A DNA stretch of 60,837 bases, counting the filler. It is 5 parts of 5 records of this genome, joined end to end, with 100 filler letters (N's around TTAATTAATTAA, not from the genome) between each part and the next. Parts side by side here need not be neighbours in the genome. Positions count along the whole stretch, not along the records: positions 9,503 to 19,549 come from DRR723986_9638; 4 more parts are not named here. The stretch is one strand, 5' to 3'. A program made the translations under genes and the position numbers. The notes under the pieces were generated by a model. The model ran no database searches. It worked only from the letters and a program-made list of their open reading frames with translations, and was not told the origin of the DNA. Of the stretch, positions 11,138 to 29,269 are shown piece by piece; the stretch's first letter is position 1; the number at the start of each line of letters is the position of its first letter.

Positions 11138-13099
11138 GTGTTAAAAAAATTACTATTAGGTTTGTCGGCGATTGCTGTGATTGCCACCGGCACCGGGTTG
11201 TATCTGACCCGTGATACAGCCCCCACCCACCCCGTTTTAAAAGCCAGCGATCTACCACCGCTAATTTCGACGCAGGCGTTTTATGCCGATCCGCGCGCGG
11301 CCTTTGGGTACGTCGCATCGAGCGATGGCAGTTTGGTGGCCTTTCAGCAGGCCAGCGTTTTCGGGCGCAGCATCGCCGTGCAAGAGGTGGCCACGAAAAA
11401 GACCATCGCTGAGTTCCCGATTGGCCTGTCGGGAATTCGCTGGCACCCGACCAAACCTTTGTTGCGGTTCATCCACGAAGGCGATGAATGGGAGGCTGAC
11501 CCAAAATCGCCAGAGAGAGAGAACTGGACCCGCACCACCCCTGTGTCGCTGTCGGGGTGGTTAAAGCTGAGATTTGCGACAGATGACACATTGCCAACCA
11601 TTGTCTGGGGCCGGAGCGGCAACCGCGACTACAACCATTTGTGGCATGTCTCCCAAGACGGGGTTTCGGCAGACATCATCGCAAAAGGTGACGCGAAAAC
11701 GCATCTCTGGGTCTTGGATAAGGCGGACAAACCCGTTTTGCGTGCCGACAATTTGGACACGGCCACTTTCCGTTGGTTTCATGATATAGGCAATGGCTGG
11801 GAACCGCTGATTGATACCAACATCAATGAAACATTCTATCCGGTGTCCAACATGCGCGCGGATGGGACGGTCCTGTTTCGATCTTCACGCGGGCGGGACA
11901 AAGTGGCGCTGGTGTCGTTTGACACAAAAACGGCAGAAGAAACGGTGCTGATCGAAAACCCGGATGCGGATATTGGGGGAACCACCCCGCTGACCTATAG
12001 TCGTGAACCCGATCTTATTCGCATGGGCACCAATAGCCATGAACGGGTGGCGCTGACCGAGCGCGGACAGGTGTTTCTGGATATCCTGGCTGACTTTCCG
12101 CAACCTATCTCATTGGGTACCACAACGCCAACCGCATCGGGGCGATACGTTACCCAAGCCTTATCATCGCAGAGCAAATCCTTTGTCTATCTGCTGATTG
12201 ATCTGCAGGAACAGAGGTATGAAGTGCTGAGCGAGTACCATTTTCGTCGGTTCAAGGATCATCTGGTCCAGCCAGAGGTGGTGACGTTCACAGCGCGGGA
12301 TGGGTTGGAAATTCCGGCTGTTTTGACCATGCCCAAAGATGTGACCGGCCCGATCCCATTTGTCGTTTTCATTCATGGGGGCCCCGCCGGTCAGGTTGGA
12401 CCCAACTACGGGCACGGTACCCAGTTTCTAGTGAACCGGGGCTATGGCGTGTTGTCGGTCAATTTTCGCGGCTCAACCGGGTTTGGCAAGGCATTTCAAG
12501 CCAAGGGTTATCGCGAATTCGGGCGCGCGATGCAGGATGATATTGCGGATGCCGCGCTGTGGCTGGTGGATCAAGGGATGGCCGATACTGATGCCTTGGT
12601 CGCGATGGGCATGAGCTATGGCGGCTATTCTGCCGCGTTGGCGATGACCCGCGATCCTGGTCTGTTTGATGCGGCCATTGTGGAATTCCCGCTCTTGGAT
12701 TTGGAATTTCAAGGCAAGCATCATCCCGGGTTCTGGAACAACTCTCTGGAATATTGGACGCGGTATTTTGGGGATATTGATGCGCCCGAGGATGTCGCGC
12801 TGATGCGGAAATATTCGCCATCGGATCGGGTGGATCAAATTCACGGACCGATTTTGGTGTTGGGCGGTAAAAAAGATCAGATCACCCCGATTCAACAGGT
12901 TCGCAATTTCGAAGCCGATGCGCATATGGCAGGCAAGGATGTGCAGGTGTATTATTTCCACAATGCGGGGCATGGCACGCGTCATTGGCGTGACAAACTG
13001 CGCCAAGCCCGGCTGCGCGAGGATTTTCTGGCCAAGACCGTTGGCGGCCGGTCTGGCGGTTATGAGTTTGTTGAGGATGCGCCCGCTTTTATCGACTGA
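11138..13099 (+). CDS. S9 family (prolyl oligopeptidase/acylaminoacyl peptidase-like) serine peptidase, exported or membrane-anchored
   Basis: N-terminal hydrophobic segment; IHGGP, NFRGSTGFG, GMSYGG nucleophile motif, DQIT and AGHG catalytic positions. Confidence 0.9.
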   Translation: MLKKLLLGLSAIAVIATGTGLYLTRDTAPTHPVLKASDLPPLISTQAFYADPRAAFGYVASSDGSLVAFQQASVFGRSIAVQEVATKKTIAEFPIGLSGIRWHPTKPLLRFIHEGDEWEADPKSPERENWTRTTPVSLSGWLKLRFATDDTLPTIVWGRSGNRDYNHLWHVSQDGVSADIIAKGDAKTHLWVLDKADKPVLRADNLDTATFRWFHDIGNGWEPLIDTNINETFYPVSNMRADGTVLFRSSRGRDKVALVSFDTKTAEETVLIENPDADIGGTTPLTYSREPDLIRMGTNSHERVALTERGQVFLDILADFPQPISLGTTTPTASGRYVTQALSSQSKSFVYLLIDLQEQRYEVLSEYHFRRFKDHLVQPEVVTFTARDGLEIPAVLTMPKDVTGPIPFVVFIHGGPAGQVGPNYGHGTQFLVNRGYGVLSVNFRGSTGFGKAFQAKGYREFGRAMQDDIADAALWLVDQGMADTDALVAMGMSYGGYSAALAMTRDPGLFDAAIVEFPLLDLEFQGKHHPGFWNNSLEYWTRYFGDIDAPEDVALMRKYSPSDRVDQIHGPILVLGGKKDQITPIQQVRNFEADAHMAGKDVQVYYFHNAGHGTRHWRDKLRQARLREDFLAKTVGGRSGGYEFVEDAPAFID

Positions 13100-13231: not shown

Positions 13232-13741
13232 ATGCCGCGTTATGAATACAAAGTCTTGCCGGCCCCGCCCAAGGGGACCAAAGCCAAGGGTATCAAAACC
13301 CCCGAAGGACGGTTTGCTTTGTCCATCGAACAGCTGCTCAACCAGATGGGCGCGTCGGGCTGGGAATATCAGCGCGCTGAGTTATTGCCGAGCGATGAGC
13401 GGTCGGGTCTGACCGGCACCACGGTGAACTGGCGCAATGTGCTGGTGTTTCGTCGCGCACTTGATTCGGTGGTGGCGCATGTGGATGCGGTGCAGGATGA
13501 CATCGCAGTGTTGCAAGACAGTGACCCGGAACCCGTGGCCGACGTCCCGCTTGCCGCGATTTCGCAGCCGGTGGAAGACCCGCCCATGACGGGGGCCCCG
13601 AGCGCGGACGCAGAGGCGTCGGCACACGAGGATGAGAACGAGACGCCAGTTCTGAGCGCCGCACTCAAAACCCGCGCCGAGCAGGTGAGCCCTAAGCCGC
13701 CCGTGATTGAGGCAGACGGCAAAGAGACGGATCGGTCTTAG
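13232..13741 (+). CDS. DUF4177-like protein with acidic low-complexity tail
   Basis: GGAGG SD; YEYKV...LNQMGASGWEY...LVFRR pattern. Confidence 0.7.
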   Translation: MPRYEYKVLPAPPKGTKAKGIKTPEGRFALSIEQLLNQMGASGWEYQRAELLPSDERSGLTGTTVNWRNVLVFRRALDSVVAHVDAVQDDIAVLQDSDPEPVADVPLAAISQPVEDPPMTGAPSADAEASAHEDENETPVLSAALKTRAEQVSPKPPVIEADGKETDRS

Positions 13742-13992
13742 GTATCTAAATCCAGTGCAAGGGCATGAATGCGGGGCACAATATCGCCCAGCGCCTTGTG
13801 AACGGCGCGGTGGCGTTGCACGCGGGATTGGCCGTCAAAGGATTGTGAGCGAATACGCACGTTGAAATGTGTTTCGCCGCCTTCGCGGTGGCCGGCGTGT
13901 CCGCGGTGGCTTTCGCTGTCGTCTTCGACATCCAATTCACGGGGATCAAACGCCGCTTGCAGTTTTGCGCGCATTTCGTCGGTTATGCTCAT
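13738..13992 (-). CDS. bolA: BolA family protein
   Basis: DDSESHRGHAG, ETHFNV, SRVQRHRAV, IHALAL. Confidence 0.92.
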   Translation of the reverse strand: MSITDEMRAKLQAAFDPRELDVEDDSESHRGHAGHREGGETHFNVRIRSQSFDGQSRVQRHRAVHKALGDIVPRIHALALDLDT

Positions 13993-14114
13993 GGGGGGTG
14001 CCTTCATTTTTTCGCCGACGAAGAAATATATTCGCCGTGCCCTCTTCTATCTTCTGCCACATAGATTAGACTGTCTCCTCCGAGTCGAGAAGTAGTATCC
14101 ATAAGGTGCCTGTT

Positions 14115-14738
14115 ATGACGAAATCTGATCCCTTTGGGTTTGATATGTCCGTCTCCACTGCCAAGAAAAAGAACCCTAGGGGTCGTCGTGGCATGTCGGG
14201 AGCGTCTGAAACGTCGCAACGCGTGTGTGAACACGACGGTTGCGAAGAGCCGGGCAAGTTCCGTGCGCCCAAAGCGCCGGACGTTCTGGATGAATTCAAG
14301 TGGTTCTGCCAGCAGCATGTGCGGGAATATAACCTCAAGTGGAATTTCTTTGATGGAACGACTGAGGCCGAGCTGAACGCGCAGCAGTCTAAGGACAAGG
14401 TGTGGGAGCGCAAGACCCGCCCGATTGGCGACCCCGAAGCGCGGGCCTGGGAACGGCTGGGCATCGAGGATCCGCATCAGGTGCTGGGCGCCAATGCGAC
14501 GCGCAACCCCGGTAAGGGTGGCGGCGGTGGCAAACGTCTGCCGCCCACCGAACGCCGCGCGGTCGAGATTCTGGAAGGTAAGGATCACTGGACCAAAGCC
14601 GAGATGCGCAAGGCGTATAAGAAGCTGATCAAAGTGCTGCACCCCGACATGAACGGCGGCGATCGCAGTCAGGAAGAGCAGCTGCAAGAGGTGGTCTGGG
14701 CTTGGGATCAGATCAAAGAAAGCCGCAACTTTAAGTGA
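14115..14738 (+). CDS. J-domain (DnaJ-like) protein
   Basis: C-terminal YKKLIKVLHPDMNGG (HPD motif); N-terminal CxxxxC...WFCQQHVREYN; divergent from bolA. Confidence 0.9.
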   Translation: MTKSDPFGFDMSVSTAKKKNPRGRRGMSGASETSQRVCEHDGCEEPGKFRAPKAPDVLDEFKWFCQQHVREYNLKWNFFDGTTEAELNAQQSKDKVWERKTRPIGDPEARAWERLGIEDPHQVLGANATRNPGKGGGGGKRLPPTERRAVEILEGKDHWTKAEMRKAYKKLIKVLHPDMNGGDRSQEEQLQEVVWAWDQIKESRNFK

Positions 14739-14762
14739 CGGTCTGATCCGGTTTGAATTTTC

Positions 14763-14793
14763 AACGGGACGCCTTGATGGGGCGTCCCGTTTT
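14763..14793 (+). terminator. Intrinsic terminator between the convergent J-domain and radical SAM genes
   Basis: AACGGGACGCC-ttgatgg-GGCGTCCCGTT followed by TT. Confidence 0.8.
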
Positions 14794-14814
14794 ACGTTGG
14801 GGCGGGATCGCGGC

Positions 14815-15969
14815 CTAGGGGGTGGCGGCCACACCCAGATCTTGGACCACGCGTTTCAGCGTGAGGAATTCCAGCGCACAGGCCTGCGTTTCAGCGACGT
14901 CAAACGTGCCGAATTCTGAGAACTTTTGCGCAATGAAAAATGACCCGCAGCTGAGATACTCTGGGCAGCTAGCCCGACATTTTTCGGCCCCGCGCAGGAT
15001 TTCATCGCCAAGACGACGAAAGGTCGGCGTGGTCAGGCACTCCAGAAGTGGGCCGTCCCTGACATTTCCCAAGGCAAATTGCCCGCTTTCGTGAAACAGC
15101 AATTCGCCGGAAAAGACCGTGAAATCGCCATTGACCGCAACGGTCAGGTTGCGAAACGGCACCATGGTCACCGGGATTTTCTGAACCGTGTCTTCGAGCA
15201 TGTGTTTCAGGCGGGCAGCTGAGAACTCGCGCACGGTCACAGCGCCGGTTTCATGCAATTGGTGATAGAGCGTCGTTAGGAACCGGGCATAGCGCGCTTG
15301 GGCGTTCTGTGCGGTGACAAAGCCGCGCTGGTTGGCGATGCTGATCTGTTCTGCCTTGATGCCAAGGGTTTTGCACCCCGTGCGTTGGACAAAATCACAG
15401 AACGCCTGTGGGTCGTCGACGTTAGTGTCCCCCACCACCGCCAACATGGTCCACGGAATGCCGCGTTTGTTGAGCTTTGCGATGCCGGACATGACTTGGT
15501 CGTAAGCCGCCTGCCCGGCCCAGTTGACCCGTTCAGAGGATTGCGCGCGGGGGCCATCAAGGCTGACACCTACCTCGCAGCGCGCACTTTGGAACAGATC
15601 GCACCACGCGTCGTCGATCAGCGCGCCGTTGCTCTGAAAGACATGGGTGATTTTTGTGAGGGGGCCAAGCATTTCCTCGGCCAGTGCAAAGGCCGCCCGA
15701 TAAAAGGCGACGCCGGCGGTCAGAGGTTCGGCACCGTGCCATGAAATCGTGAGGCTGGGCCCCCGCAGGTTTTCGTCGCGCAGCCGTTCGAACAGCTGTC
15801 GCAGCACCTCTGGGGCGATGATCTGCTTGGCCCGCCGAGAGCTGGCCGGAATGTAGCAATAGCTGCAGTTCAGGTTGCAAAAGGTGCAGGCCTGTATCCG
15901 CAGCAAAGACACCGTGGGGCCTGCGAACAGGACCGGTTCAACTGCCTGCGGCGACGGAGCGCCGTCCAC
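14815..15969 (-). CDS. Radical SAM peptide maturase, GrrM/OscB-like (cyclophane-forming family)
   Basis: CNLNCSYC (CxxxCxxC), ISWHGAEPL, QSNG, GVSLDGP, NGDFTVFSGELL, LGNV, C-terminal CRASCPEYLSC...ETQAC; GTG start directly follows the precursor TAA. Confidence 0.85.
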   Translation of the reverse strand: MDGAPSPQAVEPVLFAGPTVSLLRIQACTFCNLNCSYCYIPASSRRAKQIIAPEVLRQLFERLRDENLRGPSLTISWHGAEPLTAGVAFYRAAFALAEEMLGPLTKITHVFQSNGALIDDAWCDLFQSARCEVGVSLDGPRAQSSERVNWAGQAAYDQVMSGIAKLNKRGIPWTMLAVVGDTNVDDPQAFCDFVQRTGCKTLGIKAEQISIANQRGFVTAQNAQARYARFLTTLYHQLHETGAVTVREFSAARLKHMLEDTVQKIPVTMVPFRNLTVAVNGDFTVFSGELLFHESGQFALGNVRDGPLLECLTTPTFRRLGDEILRGAEKCRASCPEYLSCGSFFIAQKFSEFGTFDVAETQACALEFLTLKRVVQDLGVAATP

Positions 15970-16140
15970 TTAGGTCTTTGTCGGCTGGTCTTCTTCGCCT
16001 TCCCAGTCGTCGACCCATTTCAGGCCCAGTTCGAGGGGCGCGTCGGTCGCATCTGCGGTGGGAAACTGGTCCAACCAGCGAGCAAAAGCCGCCTGCCCGG
16101 TTTCTGGAGTGTCCGCTTGGGTGGTGGCTGTTGTTGTCAT
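15970..16140 (-). CDS. Putative RiPP precursor peptide, 56 aa
   Basis: GGGGAG SD before ATG 16140; MTTTATTQADTPETGQAAFARWLDQFPTADATDAPLELGLKWVDDWEGEEDQPTKT; its stop abuts the rSAM start. Confidence 0.75.
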   Translation of the reverse strand: MTTTATTQADTPETGQAAFARWLDQFPTADATDAPLELGLKWVDDWEGEEDQPTKT

Positions 16141-16228
16141 GGCTCTGCTCCCCTGATGATCGGTTATTCTGACAGCTAACGAGACAAGCAACGGGGGCGT
16201 CAATAATTTTCTGCCGCCCCCCCTTTTG

Positions 16229-17500
16229 CTAAAAGGTTGCGTTGACGGCGTGCTGCACCGCCGCCTGTGTCTGTTCCAGATCGGTTTCAGTCAGGGCGAG
16301 AGAGGGATAGAGTTTTCCCGGTGACTTAAAGATGCCATGTGTGCGCAATGCGGCGTTGTAGGTGGCGTTTGTCTTGGGGTCATCATGTTGTGCGGTTCGA
16401 TAATCGCGACAGGCCGCATTGGTGAAATAGATATCAAACAGGGTTTCATCCCCGCAGATCTGGTGCGGGACACCGGCCTTGGTGAGCGCATCGCTTTGCA
16501 TATCCTGCAGGGATTTCCCCAGCGTGCGCAGCCGGTCATAGCTGCCCTCGCGGCGCAATACTTCCATCGTTTTCAGGCCCGCAGCCGCCGCAATCGGATT
16601 GCCCGAAAGCGTGCCAAGTTGCATCAGCCATTTATCGGCACCGACGCTGGATTTATCGAAATGCTGCATGATTTCTGCGCTGGCGCCCAGCGCGGCCAGA
16701 GGGAAGCCACCGCCGATAATCTTGCCCAACGTGCAAATGTCGGGCGTGACGCCATATCGTTCTTGCGCGCCGCCATAGGCCAGTCGGAACCCGGTGACAA
16801 TTTCGTCGAAAATCAGCAGGACACTGTGTTTGTCGCACAGATCACGCAGGCCCTGCAGGTATCCGGGCGCGGCGGGAATGATCCGCTGCAGTGGCTCTGC
16901 AATGATGGCCGCGATGTCTTTGTGTTCGTTCAGCAGCGCCTCGACCGCGGCGAGGTCATTGTAGGGCGCGATCAGCATTTCGTCGGCCACGCCCTGTGGG
17001 ATGCCCGCACTGTCGGGCACCGCTTGGGGAAAGTTCACACGGGCTGCGGGGGCGAGGCTCATCTGGGCTTCGGCGCTCATGCCGTGATAGCCGCCTTCGA
17101 ATTTTAGGATCTTGGAGCGGCCTGTATAGGCGCGGGCAAGGCGGATTGCGTACATGTCCGCTTCGCCACCGGAGGCGACGAACCTGACCTGTTCACAACA
17201 GGGGACGGCGTGCACGATTGCCTCGGCCAGTTCTATGCCTTTGGCGTTGTTGGCAAAGAAGGTCATGCCTGTGGGCAGTTGTTGCAGGACCGCCTCTATC
17301 ACTTCGGGGTGGCCGTGCCCAAGGAGCATGGGACCAGATCCGATCAGGTAGTCGATGTATTCGGTACCATCTTCGTCCCAGACATGGCTGCCCTCGCCCC
17401 GGGCGATGATGATGCCGGGGTCGAAATTGCCAAACCCACCGGCGGGCAGGACCGCTTGGGCGCGGGTGATCCATTCGGATTTAGAGGTCAGTTTTTGCAT
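16229..17500 (-). CDS. Class III PLP aminotransferase (glutamate-1-semialdehyde aminomutase-like)
   Basis: GPMLLGH, KFEGGYHG, LIFDEIVTGFR, TLGKIIGGGFP, GTLSGNP. Confidence 0.88.
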   Translation of the reverse strand: MQKLTSKSEWITRAQAVLPAGGFGNFDPGIIIARGEGSHVWDEDGTEYIDYLIGSGPMLLGHGHPEVIEAVLQQLPTGMTFFANNAKGIELAEAIVHAVPCCEQVRFVASGGEADMYAIRLARAYTGRSKILKFEGGYHGMSAEAQMSLAPAARVNFPQAVPDSAGIPQGVADEMLIAPYNDLAAVEALLNEHKDIAAIIAEPLQRIIPAAPGYLQGLRDLCDKHSVLLIFDEIVTGFRLAYGGAQERYGVTPDICTLGKIIGGGFPLAALGASAEIMQHFDKSSVGADKWLMQLGTLSGNPIAAAAGLKTMEVLRREGSYDRLRTLGKSLQDMQSDALTKAGVPHQICGDETLFDIYFTNAACRDYRTAQHDDPKTNATYNAALRTHGIFKSPGKLYPSLALTETDLEQTQAAVQHAVNATF

Positions 17501-17503
17501 GTC

Positions 17504-18607
17504 TTAGTCCATTATCAGGAGGGGCGTGCCGAGAACGTCTGGATCGGGGGTCACGCCCAGACCTGCCCCCTCGGGGGGGGCGATGCGTCCATTTTTGCGT
17601 GTCGGGCCATCCTGAGCAAGCCGGGGGCCCACGTAGGAGGACAGATCACAGGTGTTCAGCAGTGCGTTGGCGGGGGTTGAGGCCGCGAAATGCAGCGCGG
17701 CAGCAGTAACAATGTCTGAGCCCCACGTGCATTCGGCGCAGATTTCGGCCCCCAGATGCACGCTGAGGTCGCGGGCGCGGCGCATGGCAGAGAGGCCGCC
17801 GAATTTCGACAGTTTCAGAGCAACGGCATCGAGCACCCCTAGCTGTGCTGCGTGCAAGAGGGACGCCAGATCATGGGCGCTTTCGTCGATTTTCATGGCC
17901 AAACCGGTGGCTTGGCGGACTGCGGCGCAGTCTTCGAGCGTTTTGCAGGGTTGTTCGAGCATGACGTCGAGGTGCGCCACAGCGCGACCCGTGCGCGTGG
18001 CTTGCAGTTTCGTCGCGCCGCAGTTCCAATCGCCGTAGACCAGAGGCCCTGCCCCCACCGCCTCGCGCACGCGGGTCAGGCGTTCGACGTCGGCCTGCCA
18101 ATCCGCATCGGCGCCCAGTTTGACCTGAAACTGGCGGATGCCGGTCGTCGCGGCCTCTTTGGCGATCCGCGCCATGTCGTCGGGCGCAATGCAGGTGATC
18201 GAGTGATAGAGCGGCATGTCGGTTTGGGTGCGCCCCCCGAGCAGCGCATAGAGCGGTTGGCCGGTGGCCTGTCCGAACAGATCCCAGAGCGCCATATCAA
18301 CGCAGGATTTGGCGTAGACATGGCCCTGAAGGACCCCATCCAATGTGCGCATGAGGGCGTCCACGCCCAAGGGGGATTTGCCAAGGATTTCGGGGGCCAT
18401 TTCCGCAACGGCGCTGGGCACCCCATCTGCAAAAGCGGGCAGATAGTGCGGGATCGGGCAGACCTCGCCCCATCCTTGTAGGCCGGTGTCCGTTTCCAGA
18501 CACAGCACGTGGGTTTTGACCGTGTCGCAGGTTTTGCCTTCGGCCATGTAATAGGGTTGGTGGCTGGTCAGTCCAAGCGACCAGAGGGTGATGCGGGTTA
18601 TCTTCAT
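17504..18607 (-). CDS. Mandelate racemase/muconate lactonizing enzyme family protein (hydroxyproline-betaine epimerase/cis-3-hydroxyproline dehydratase-like)
   Basis: GWGEVCP, QVKLG, DWNCG, EQPC, DES metal ligands, LKLSKFGG, GLGV. Confidence 0.85.
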   Translation of the reverse strand: MKITRITLWSLGLTSHQPYYMAEGKTCDTVKTHVLCLETDTGLQGWGEVCPIPHYLPAFADGVPSAVAEMAPEILGKSPLGVDALMRTLDGVLQGHVYAKSCVDMALWDLFGQATGQPLYALLGGRTQTDMPLYHSITCIAPDDMARIAKEAATTGIRQFQVKLGADADWQADVERLTRVREAVGAGPLVYGDWNCGATKLQATRTGRAVAHLDVMLEQPCKTLEDCAAVRQATGLAMKIDESAHDLASLLHAAQLGVLDAVALKLSKFGGLSAMRRARDLSVHLGAEICAECTWGSDIVTAAALHFAASTPANALLNTCDLSSYVGPRLAQDGPTRKNGRIAPPEGAGLGVTPDPDVLGTPLLIMD

Positions 18608-19549
18608 GCGTATACCGCCACGGGATCGCCCAGCGCGCCCTCGTCAGGATGCACGCCGAGACCGGGGGCTTCGGGCAAATGCAGATGCCCATCTTGATTG
18701 CGGGGTCCGCGTCCGCCGGCGATGTCGACGGTCAGCATGTCCTGACAGGCCCAGACAGCGTGGCAGTTGGCGTCAGGGATCGTTGCGGCCAAATGCAGCG
18801 CCTCGGTGTCGGCTAAGACCGACCCACCTGTCGCCATTACGAACATATCAATGCCGTGGGCCAGCGCCACGTCCCGCATCCGGGCCGCTTTGGTCAGCCC
18901 CCCGACGCGGTTGAGTTTGATGCCGAACACCTCGGCCAGGCCATCGCGCGCGATGCGGGTGGCGTCTTGGAGCGTCACCAATGCCTCGTCTACGGAGACG
19001 GGCGCGGCATGTTTGCCAGAAATCGCCGCGATATCGTCCAAGGTTTCGCAAGGCTGTTCGAACATCACGTTCAGGTCTTGGGTCGCGGACATGACCCTTA
19101 GGGCCTGTTGCCGGGTCCAGCCGCGATTGACATCAAAGAGCACGATTTCACCGTCACGGCGGATGTCTTCGACATCGCGCACCCGTGCAATGTCGCGGGC
19201 CACATCGCCGCCGATTTTAACCGAATGCGCGACATAGCCACGTTGGCGATAGCGATCAATCACAGCGCGGGTTTCTTGCACGGTTTTGGCCCCGACGGAG
19301 GACGCAATGGCGCGCGGTGTACGGGACCCACCCCCCATCAGATCAGCAATCGGCAGGCCAGCCGACTGCCCGGCAATGTCCCAGCACGCCATGTCGATGG
19401 GGCTTTTGGCGTAGAGATGGCCGGGCAGCGCAAGATCCATCGCCCGTTCCACATCCAGAACCCTGCGGGGATCCAGCCCCAGAATGAACGGAGCCATCGT
19501 TTCAATCCCAGCGCGAATACCGGGGCCATGGGCGGGCACATAGGTGTGT
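18604..19549 (-). CDS. Second mandelate racemase/MLE family protein, 5'-truncated
   Basis: SVKIGG, DVNRGW, EQPC, VDE, IKLNRVGG, PGLGV; truncated by the linker. Confidence 0.85.
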
Positions 19550-29117: not shown

Positions 29118-29217
29118 NNNNNNNNNNNNNNNNNNNNNNNNNNNNNNNNNNNNNNNNNNNNTTAATTAATTAANNNNNNNNNNNNNNNNNNNNNNNNNNN
29201 NNNNNNNNNNNNNNNNN
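29118..29217. other. Artificial contig linker
   Basis: N-run with TTAATTAATTAA. Confidence 0.99.
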
Positions 29218-29269
29218 CCCAAGCCGATCGGGCAGTTAACCGGCAGAAGAGAGATCGCAACCCTAGCAG

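Follow-up and report, generated by a model that had tools for sequence, protein, structure and literature searches.

A two-gene radical SAM cassette with a predicted Trp-Asp cyclophane in an acidic precursor peptide

The 60,837-nt stretch of DNA analysed here (the window) carries a two-gene cassette, in which a short acidic peptide is encoded directly upstream of a radical S-adenosylmethionine (SAM) enzyme. The locus is confirmed as real and its chemistry is predicted: the pair is probably a cognate precursor and maturase of the triceptide type, making a single C-C cyclophane between Trp42 and Asp44 of the peptide, with a loss of 2 Da. Triceptides are defined by an aromatic-to-C-beta link, installed by radical SAM enzymes on aromatic-X-X motifs (excerpt of PMC11499958; articles marked in this way are cited from parts of their text), and the window holds such an arrangement, with a precursor gene beside the enzyme and a conserved aromatic-X-X motif, W42-V-D44. 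Judged by its sequence, the enzyme belongs to a separate, unnamed sister clade of GrrM/OscB, with about 59 enzymes and a precursor family of its own.

The initial annotation had described the enzyme as a divergent GrrM/OscB-type relative, and comparison with profile hidden Markov models (HMMs) agrees with this. The top NCBIfam match is GrrM/OscB (TIGR04261), which aligns over the full length with 252.4 bits against a cut-off of 310, followed by AmcB (NF041718), also over the full length, with 233.3 bits against 425; both families consist of maturases that form three-residue cyclophanes. Since the enzyme lies below the curated cut-offs of both families, it is a relative and not a member of either. 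The third-best family, the anaerobic sulfatase maturases (anSME, TIGR03942), reaches 140.4 bits against a cut-off of 349, which places the enzyme far from them, and the matches to XyeB/XncB (TIGR04496, 49.5 bits, cut-off 450) and FxsB/MscB (TIGR04269, 86.7 bits, cut-off 370) are weak. The Radical_SAM domain (PF04055) is recognised with 63 bits, above its gathering threshold of 29.5, while SPASM (PF13186) stays at 15.9 bits, below its cut-off of 21.5. The enzyme lacks a seven-Cys motif; only four C-terminal cysteines are conserved, as is also the case in curated GrrM/OscB members.

All the motifs listed at the outset are present in the translation, namely CxxxCxxC, SWHGAEPL, NGDFTVFSGELL and the C-terminal Cx3Cx5C...ETQAC set, which is presumed to hold an auxiliary Fe-S cluster. 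Eight Cys columns (C31, C35, C38, C123, C331, C335, C341 and C364) are common to 8/8 clade and 8/8 GrrM-like enzymes, and C199 is an additional cysteine found only in the clade. The enzyme shares homology and fold with cyclophane synthases: the best fold match of its AlphaFold model (predicted local distance difference test, pLDDT, 87.8; predicted template modelling score, pTM, 0.87) is the triceptide synthase ChlB in its leader-bound form (9gm3; template modelling score, TM, 0.75; E = 1.1e-21). The sulfatase maturase anSME (4k36) is an equally good fold match (TM 0.76), and a sequence profile retrieves the same two proteins (ChlB, E = 1.5e-24; anSME, E = 9e-31).

A homologue search of 5.8 billion proteins returned one twin with 96% identity and then 58 proteins (P0002-P0059), the full-length ones with 43-51% identity (E = 1e-87 to 1e-116). 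Past P0059 the identity is no higher than 37%, and this is where proteins with the name GrrM/OscB start to appear. Clade membership was fixed from this gap in E-values before a FastTree phylogeny of 120 rows was built (five length outliers were left out), and in this tree a branch with support 100 divides the 57 clade rows from all the others. The same division is found in the TIGR04261 scores, where six other clade members reach 206-267 bits and none passes the cut-off, while all 11 non-clade relatives do so with 329-638 bits. The clade differs from GrrM-like enzymes at 32 specific positions. All 57 clade rows have Lys at position 205, where 56 of 59 GrrM-like rows have Asn. At position 210, 95% of the clade rows have Asn (the window enzyme has Ser) and 54 of the 59 GrrM-like rows have Glu. 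The clade also has WHGAEP and FSGELL where GrrM-like enzymes have WHAGEP and FSPELL. The change of charge at positions 205 and 210 would fit an acidic core. Lys205 is a candidate partner of this core, an idea prompted by HtkB/HaaB, where a single active-site residue (the D214/H204 switch) is reported to set X3 specificity.

No curated model in NCBIfam or Pfam covers the enzyme clade or the precursor family, and a literature search found no paper on a W-x-D-E precursor family; the 2022 triceptide landscape (J Am Chem Soc 144, 11580) was outside the reach of this search. The proposal of an undescribed subfamily holds as far as curated models are concerned, and the clade may already figure among the roughly 3,900 predicted triceptide pathways.

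Of the 56 residues of the peptide, 12 are Asp/Glu, 3 are Lys/Arg and 3 are Gly; the peptide is therefore very acidic and not Gly-rich, as had been described. It fits a W-x-D-E precursor family, with the leader FxxWLxxFP and the core W42-V-D44-D, and public protein sets already contain it with one substitution (P0260). Clade enzymes are encoded by 20 metagenome loci, 8 of which are cut too short upstream to judge. At all 12 loci with at least 400 nt upstream (9 of them distinct), a same-strand upstream protein carries the leader and W-x-D-E cores, so that a conserved peptide does accompany the homologues. Across the six frames of the window the leader and core pattern has a single match, the peptide itself, and it is absent from 110.8 kb of non-clade radical SAM loci and from 92 kb of other loci.

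In an N-terminal alignment of ten precursors, P27, W42 and D44 are invariant, which bears out the W42-V-D44 motif of the initial annotation, and F19, W22 and L26 are nearly invariant; position 45 is Glu in the nine relatives and Asp in the window. None of the ten matches a precursor family in NCBIfam or Pfam. A profile made from this alignment, run against 1.84 billion representatives, gave 38 matches. The pattern is present in 32 of them, P0277 can be added on inspection by eye, and the other five are repeat proteins without relation to the family, which leaves 33 clusters. The leader begins at residue 15 in 23 of the 32 pattern-fitting matches. From these proteins 85 cores were gathered by means of a pattern in which W, D and [DE] are fixed, and their logo reads R-E-K-A-W-L-D-E. 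Position +1 is Leu (51), Arg (16) or Ala (8), and position +3 is acidic in all 85 cores (Glu in 82, Asp in 3), as the collecting pattern demanded. Position +4 is mostly Ile, Tyr, Gly or Val and the residues that follow are not conserved, and the Gly of W46-E-G has no C-beta. A second ring at W46-E-G, and with it a bicyclic product, is not supported; of the proposed WxDxW motif and leader, the leader, W42 and D44 are conserved and the second Trp is not.

The W-V-D-D-W core of the window is also found in P0275. Five more precursors were paired with clade enzymes by inference from equal source-sequence sizes, not by direct observation, and one of these pairs joins P0275 to P0002, the closest non-self enzyme. 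A metagenome locus that is 97% identical to the window locus (L011) allows the two genes to be compared at the nucleotide level. The final 19 peptide codons encode the same protein with one synonymous change, while the approximately 17 codons after the TAAGTG junction of the two genes hold nine nucleotide changes, mostly non-synonymous. The peptide core is under purifying selection, its protein sequence being the same at both loci while the adjacent downstream DNA diverges.

In the excerpt of PMC11002830, OscB joins Trp-C7 to the C-beta of Asn or Asp at i+2; therefore the best reading for the window peptide is hydrogen abstraction at the C-beta of Asp44 and closure onto Trp42. The enzyme would bind the 56-residue peptide, probably through the N-terminal FxxWLxxFP motif, and reductive cleavage of SAM would generate a 5'-deoxyadenosyl radical that abstracts the hydrogen from Asp44. 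The resulting carbon radical would attack the indole of Trp42 at an inferred ring position. Loss of a proton and an electron, the latter probably to the C-terminal auxiliary Fe-S cluster, would give a three-residue Trp-Val-Asp cyclophane.

Several observations weigh against this assignment. The enzyme scores below the cut-offs of both nearest families, and its function is transferred across a family boundary. Together with its 96% twin, it forms a long branch inside the clade, with 49-51% identity to the other members. The window core departs from the consensus, with Val for Leu at +1, Asp for Glu at +3 and a Trp that no R-E-K precedes. Modification could also fall on the leader, which holds a second triplet, W22-L-D24. 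Finally, OscB is said to make formylglycine and aminomalonate in vitro, and if so its relatives may carry out other chemistry.

One alternative is a cognate pair with a different product, such as a four-residue ring between Trp42 and residue 45, a W22-L-D24 link, a bond of the C-O or C-N type, or an Asp that is oxidised while no ring closes. We regard such an outcome as unlikely. Residue 45 could be the reactive residue, since +3 is acidic both in the pattern-selected cores and, as Glu, in the nine relatives of the independent alignment; the enzyme stands outside every curated family, with its 32 clade-specific positions, and related radical SAM cyclophane synthases form C-C, C-O and C-N links (excerpt of PMC11499958). 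However, in the excerpts of PMC11002830 and PMC11499958 the nearest characterised relatives all join i to i+2 at C-beta, and the Asp at +2 is invariant in the independent alignment of ten precursors; the family does not conserve the Asp at position 24 of the leader. Much less probable still is that the small open reading frame (ORF) is not a substrate and lies beside the enzyme incidentally, with the enzyme acting on another protein or on a small molecule, for instance in the manner of a sulfatase maturase. The family rank and fold match of anSME would agree with this, as would a cassette without the usual partners of a peptide made by ribosomes and modified after translation (RiPP), but the anSME score is far under its cut-off, the peptide family accompanies the clade at all 12 informative loci and is absent from the rest of the DNA surveyed, and the peptide core is under purifying selection.

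We also consider it very improbable that the cassette is a recent acquisition, silent or decaying, without function in this host. In favour of this reading, a search of 401 genomes (400 genera) from the Roseobacter-like family yielded no clade member, and four relatives that have the block of hypothetical protein, bolA and J-domain genes show no enzyme, peptide, aminotransferase or S9 peptidase in the 18-kb regions around it (about 8-10 kb on either side). On the other hand, both ORFs are intact, all the cluster cysteines are present and the structural model is confident. Moreover, four studies of metagenomes (marine sediment, seawater, coral and microbial mat) have the same arrangement of J-domain, enzyme, peptide and aminotransferase genes, with about 96-99% identity, on contigs that bridge the J-domain and enzyme genes (14473-15329) and the enzyme, peptide and aminotransferase genes (15301-17332); the window itself may stem from one of these data sets. 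The formation of a Trp42-Asp44 cyclophane by a cognate pair remains our preferred reading.

The substrates of the clade are more varied than the window suggests. Most precursors hold 2-7 cores and one (L016) about 20, while the window peptide is the minimal form of the family, with a single core and no signal; the description of a short, non-repetitive precursor thus applies to this member and not to the family. The L016 protein has about 20 W-R-D-E repeats behind a twin-arginine translocation (Tat)-like SRR-x-FL start, and a PEP-CTERM sorting domain forms the C-terminus of the substrates at L014 and L015, with scores above the NCBIfam and Pfam cut-offs. The latter two are encoded at L014:2140-2919 and L015:2661-2954, and P0276 has a similar tail by eye. 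A full-text literature search found no paper joining cyclophane, radical SAM and PEP-CTERM. Repeat proteins with 4 to about 20 W-[RLA]-D-E units are found at L016:2158-2982 and L021:1092-1766 and in P0243-P0249, and in these the leader motif lies within the Tat-like signal (SRR-x-FL, a hydrophobic stretch and A-x-A). P0257 (729 aa) consists of tandem units of about 73 aa, each with a leader-like Y/F-x-x-W-M-x-Q-LP followed by G-W-E/D-D-D/E, and could be either a series of leader-core modules fused together or a repeat domain without relation to the family. Clade enzymes differ in the genes beside them (amidase, ParA-like, class I/II aminotransferase, alpha/beta hydrolase), and no protease or transporter recurs in these neighbourhoods; the cassette itself has neither, as noted initially.

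For all characterised triceptides, proteolytic release before the first ring has been stated (PMC12912966). A possible, if doubtful, view is that the clade is a protein-stapling system and not a natural-product pathway, with Trp-Asp cyclophanes set into the cytoplasmic precursors of exported or surface proteins. Modification would then precede export, in the way that the anSME relatives treat sulfatases. The substrates span 47-aa peptides, proteins of about 20 W-R-D-E repeats behind a Tat-like signal and PEP-CTERM-anchored proteins of up to 260 aa. The signal-less window peptide would be a minimal intracellular form, for example a metal-binding or cofactor-like acidic peptide, and could be modified twice, at W22-L-D24 and at W42-V-D44.

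The features of the locus are collected in Table 1. The peptide ORF with its Shine-Dalgarno-like sequence and TAA stop, the enzyme ORF, the bolA and J-domain genes on one side and the aminotransferase gene on the other are all as first described, as judged from ORF calls, the sequence and Pfam.

Table 1 Coordinates of the cassette, its motifs and its flanking features in the window
Feature	Position	Strand	Location	Basis or remark
Gene of the precursor peptide (56 aa; net charge, about -9)	15970..16140	-		ORF call and sequence
Radical SAM enzyme gene	14815..15969	-		384 aa if begun at GTG 15969; GTG 15912, a possible start, would give 365 aa
Shine-Dalgarno-like GGGGAG	16148..16153	-	7 nt ahead of ATG 16140	Read directly from the sequence
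Leader motif F19-A-R-W22-L-D-Q-F-P27	16060..16086	-		Family pattern [FY]xxW[LM]xxLP
Core W42-V-D44-D45-W46	16003..16017	-		Predicted W42-D44 cross-link
C31-x3-C35-x2-C38 (CNLNCSYC), radical SAM [4Fe-4S] motif	15856..15879	-		16/16 aligned clade and GrrM-like enzymes
C331-x3-C335-x5-C341 ... C364 (ETQAC364)	14878..14979	-		8/8 clade and 8/8 GrrM-like enzymes
BolA gene	13738..14007		Neighbour of cassette	Pfam
J-domain protein gene	14106..14738		Convergent with enzyme gene	Pfam
Class-III aminotransferase gene	16229..17500		Other flank of cassette	Pfam
Hairpin, G+C-rich, 11-bp stem	14763..14791		Between convergent enzyme and J-domain genes	
G+C stem	16193..16221	-	Directly after aminotransferase stop, upstream of peptide gene	

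The stop codon of the peptide ORF abuts the enzyme GTG (TAAGTG), with no gap between the ORFs, as first described; a start at this overlap, and with it the coupling of the two genes, is uncertain. Because the codons after TAAGTG diverge in L011, and the residues that they encode are modelled by AlphaFold with low confidence, the true start of the enzyme may be GTG 15912 (V20) instead.

Hairpins had been noted on both sides of the cassette. The one between the convergent genes folds with -27.1 kcal/mol (z = -3.78; 0 of 200 shuffles fold equally well) and is likely a two-way terminator. The upstream stem is present, but the 95-nt stretch around it folds no better than its shuffles (z = -0.06), and a simple terminator scan picked up neither hairpin.

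Beyond the upstream stem, positions 16229-19539 (-) hold the class-III aminotransferase gene, followed on that strand by a neighbouring pair of enolase-superfamily (MR/MLE) genes; gene ends overlap or nearly touch, and the arrangement looks like a separate small-molecule operon. The aminotransferase was considered as a member of the cassette and is not supported, as the neighbours of clade enzymes vary. On the other side, at 11138-13099 (+) and 1.7 kb away from the cassette, lies the gene of an S9 peptidase (prolyl-oligopeptidase family) whose N-terminus is hydrophobic. Some cyclophane peptides are processed by S9 proteases (excerpt of PMC12957482); as a leader protease this candidate is not supported, since it is absent beside the bolA/J-domain block of the four relatives and from the clade loci.

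Regarding the host, a run of N with the linker TTAATTAATTAA at 29118..29217 joins two contigs in the window. The first, which bears the cassette, encodes a J-domain protein that is 83-89% identical to proteins of Lentibacter, Shimia, Pseudooceanicola and Roseovarius, in line with the Roseobacter-like host suggested at first. The second (29218-60837) is 99% identical to genome G001 and has a lower G+C content (52-55%, and about 41% from 50 kb); a stretch of approximately 50 nt at 29218-29269 recurs in at least six places in G001, and the kin of this genome are without the J-domain protein of the first contig. The two contigs may come from different organisms, for example by mixed binning.

The same 401 Roseobacter-like genomes gave four full-length matches, with 210-269 bits on the clade profile, which are GrrM-like; three were scanned, and all three pass the TIGR04261 cut-off. 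A single-sequence search of genome contigs found only distant, non-clade relatives. Three loci of Roseobacter-family genomes (L037, L038 and L039, from genomes G803, G960 and G854) encode GrrM/OscB-type enzymes, L037 and L038 being above the TIGR04261 cut-off. The upstream precursors of L038 and L039 have a signal peptide and W-x-N-W repeats, and that of L037 ends in a tail of another type, rich in Trp and Asp.

Triceptides form the largest subclass among radical SAM cyclophane peptides, with about ten maturases characterised as of 2024 (excerpt of PMC11499958). The cassette offers a compact two-gene test case for ring formation between Trp and Asp, and the Lys205 of its clade, set against the Asn of GrrM-like enzymes, a natural contrast for X3 specificity that echoes D214/H204 in HtkB/HaaB. 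The repeat and PEP-CTERM-anchored substrates raise the question of whether such rings also occur as protein modifications. HMMs for the clade and its precursors would improve annotation, which now reads 'radical SAM protein' or 'hypothetical protein'.

Among the known systems, XyeB/XncB and FxsB/MscB share the enzyme class and the aromatic-X-X logic (excerpt of PMC11002830), but are weak HMM matches. The sulfatase maturases (4k36-4k39) have the same overall fold and are found with a significant profile E-value, but score well under their own cut-off, and their targets are Cys or Ser residues of sulfatases and not an adjacent small peptide. AmcB, the second-best match, is likewise far short of its cut-off, and a literature search for its name brought up nothing of relevance. 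ChlB (9gm3, 9gmc) is the best fold match and was solved with the leader of its own precursor bound, which gives leader binding by this type of enzyme a precedent; it differs in having approximately 19% sequence identity and in acting on a Tyr-Asp-Arg motif (excerpt of PMC11499958). GrrM/OscB is closest, with the best full-length match, the same conserved cysteines and a precursor gene directly upstream, but the clade falls below its cut-off and lies on a separate branch with its own set of specific positions. GrrA-type precursors are Gly-rich repeats encoded beside the enzyme, a feature that the window peptide does not share. The precursors of the GrrM/OscB-type loci L001, L009, L038 and L039 are Gly-rich or have W-x-N-W repeats behind signal peptides, whereas those of the clade combine a different leader with acidic W-x-D-E cores.

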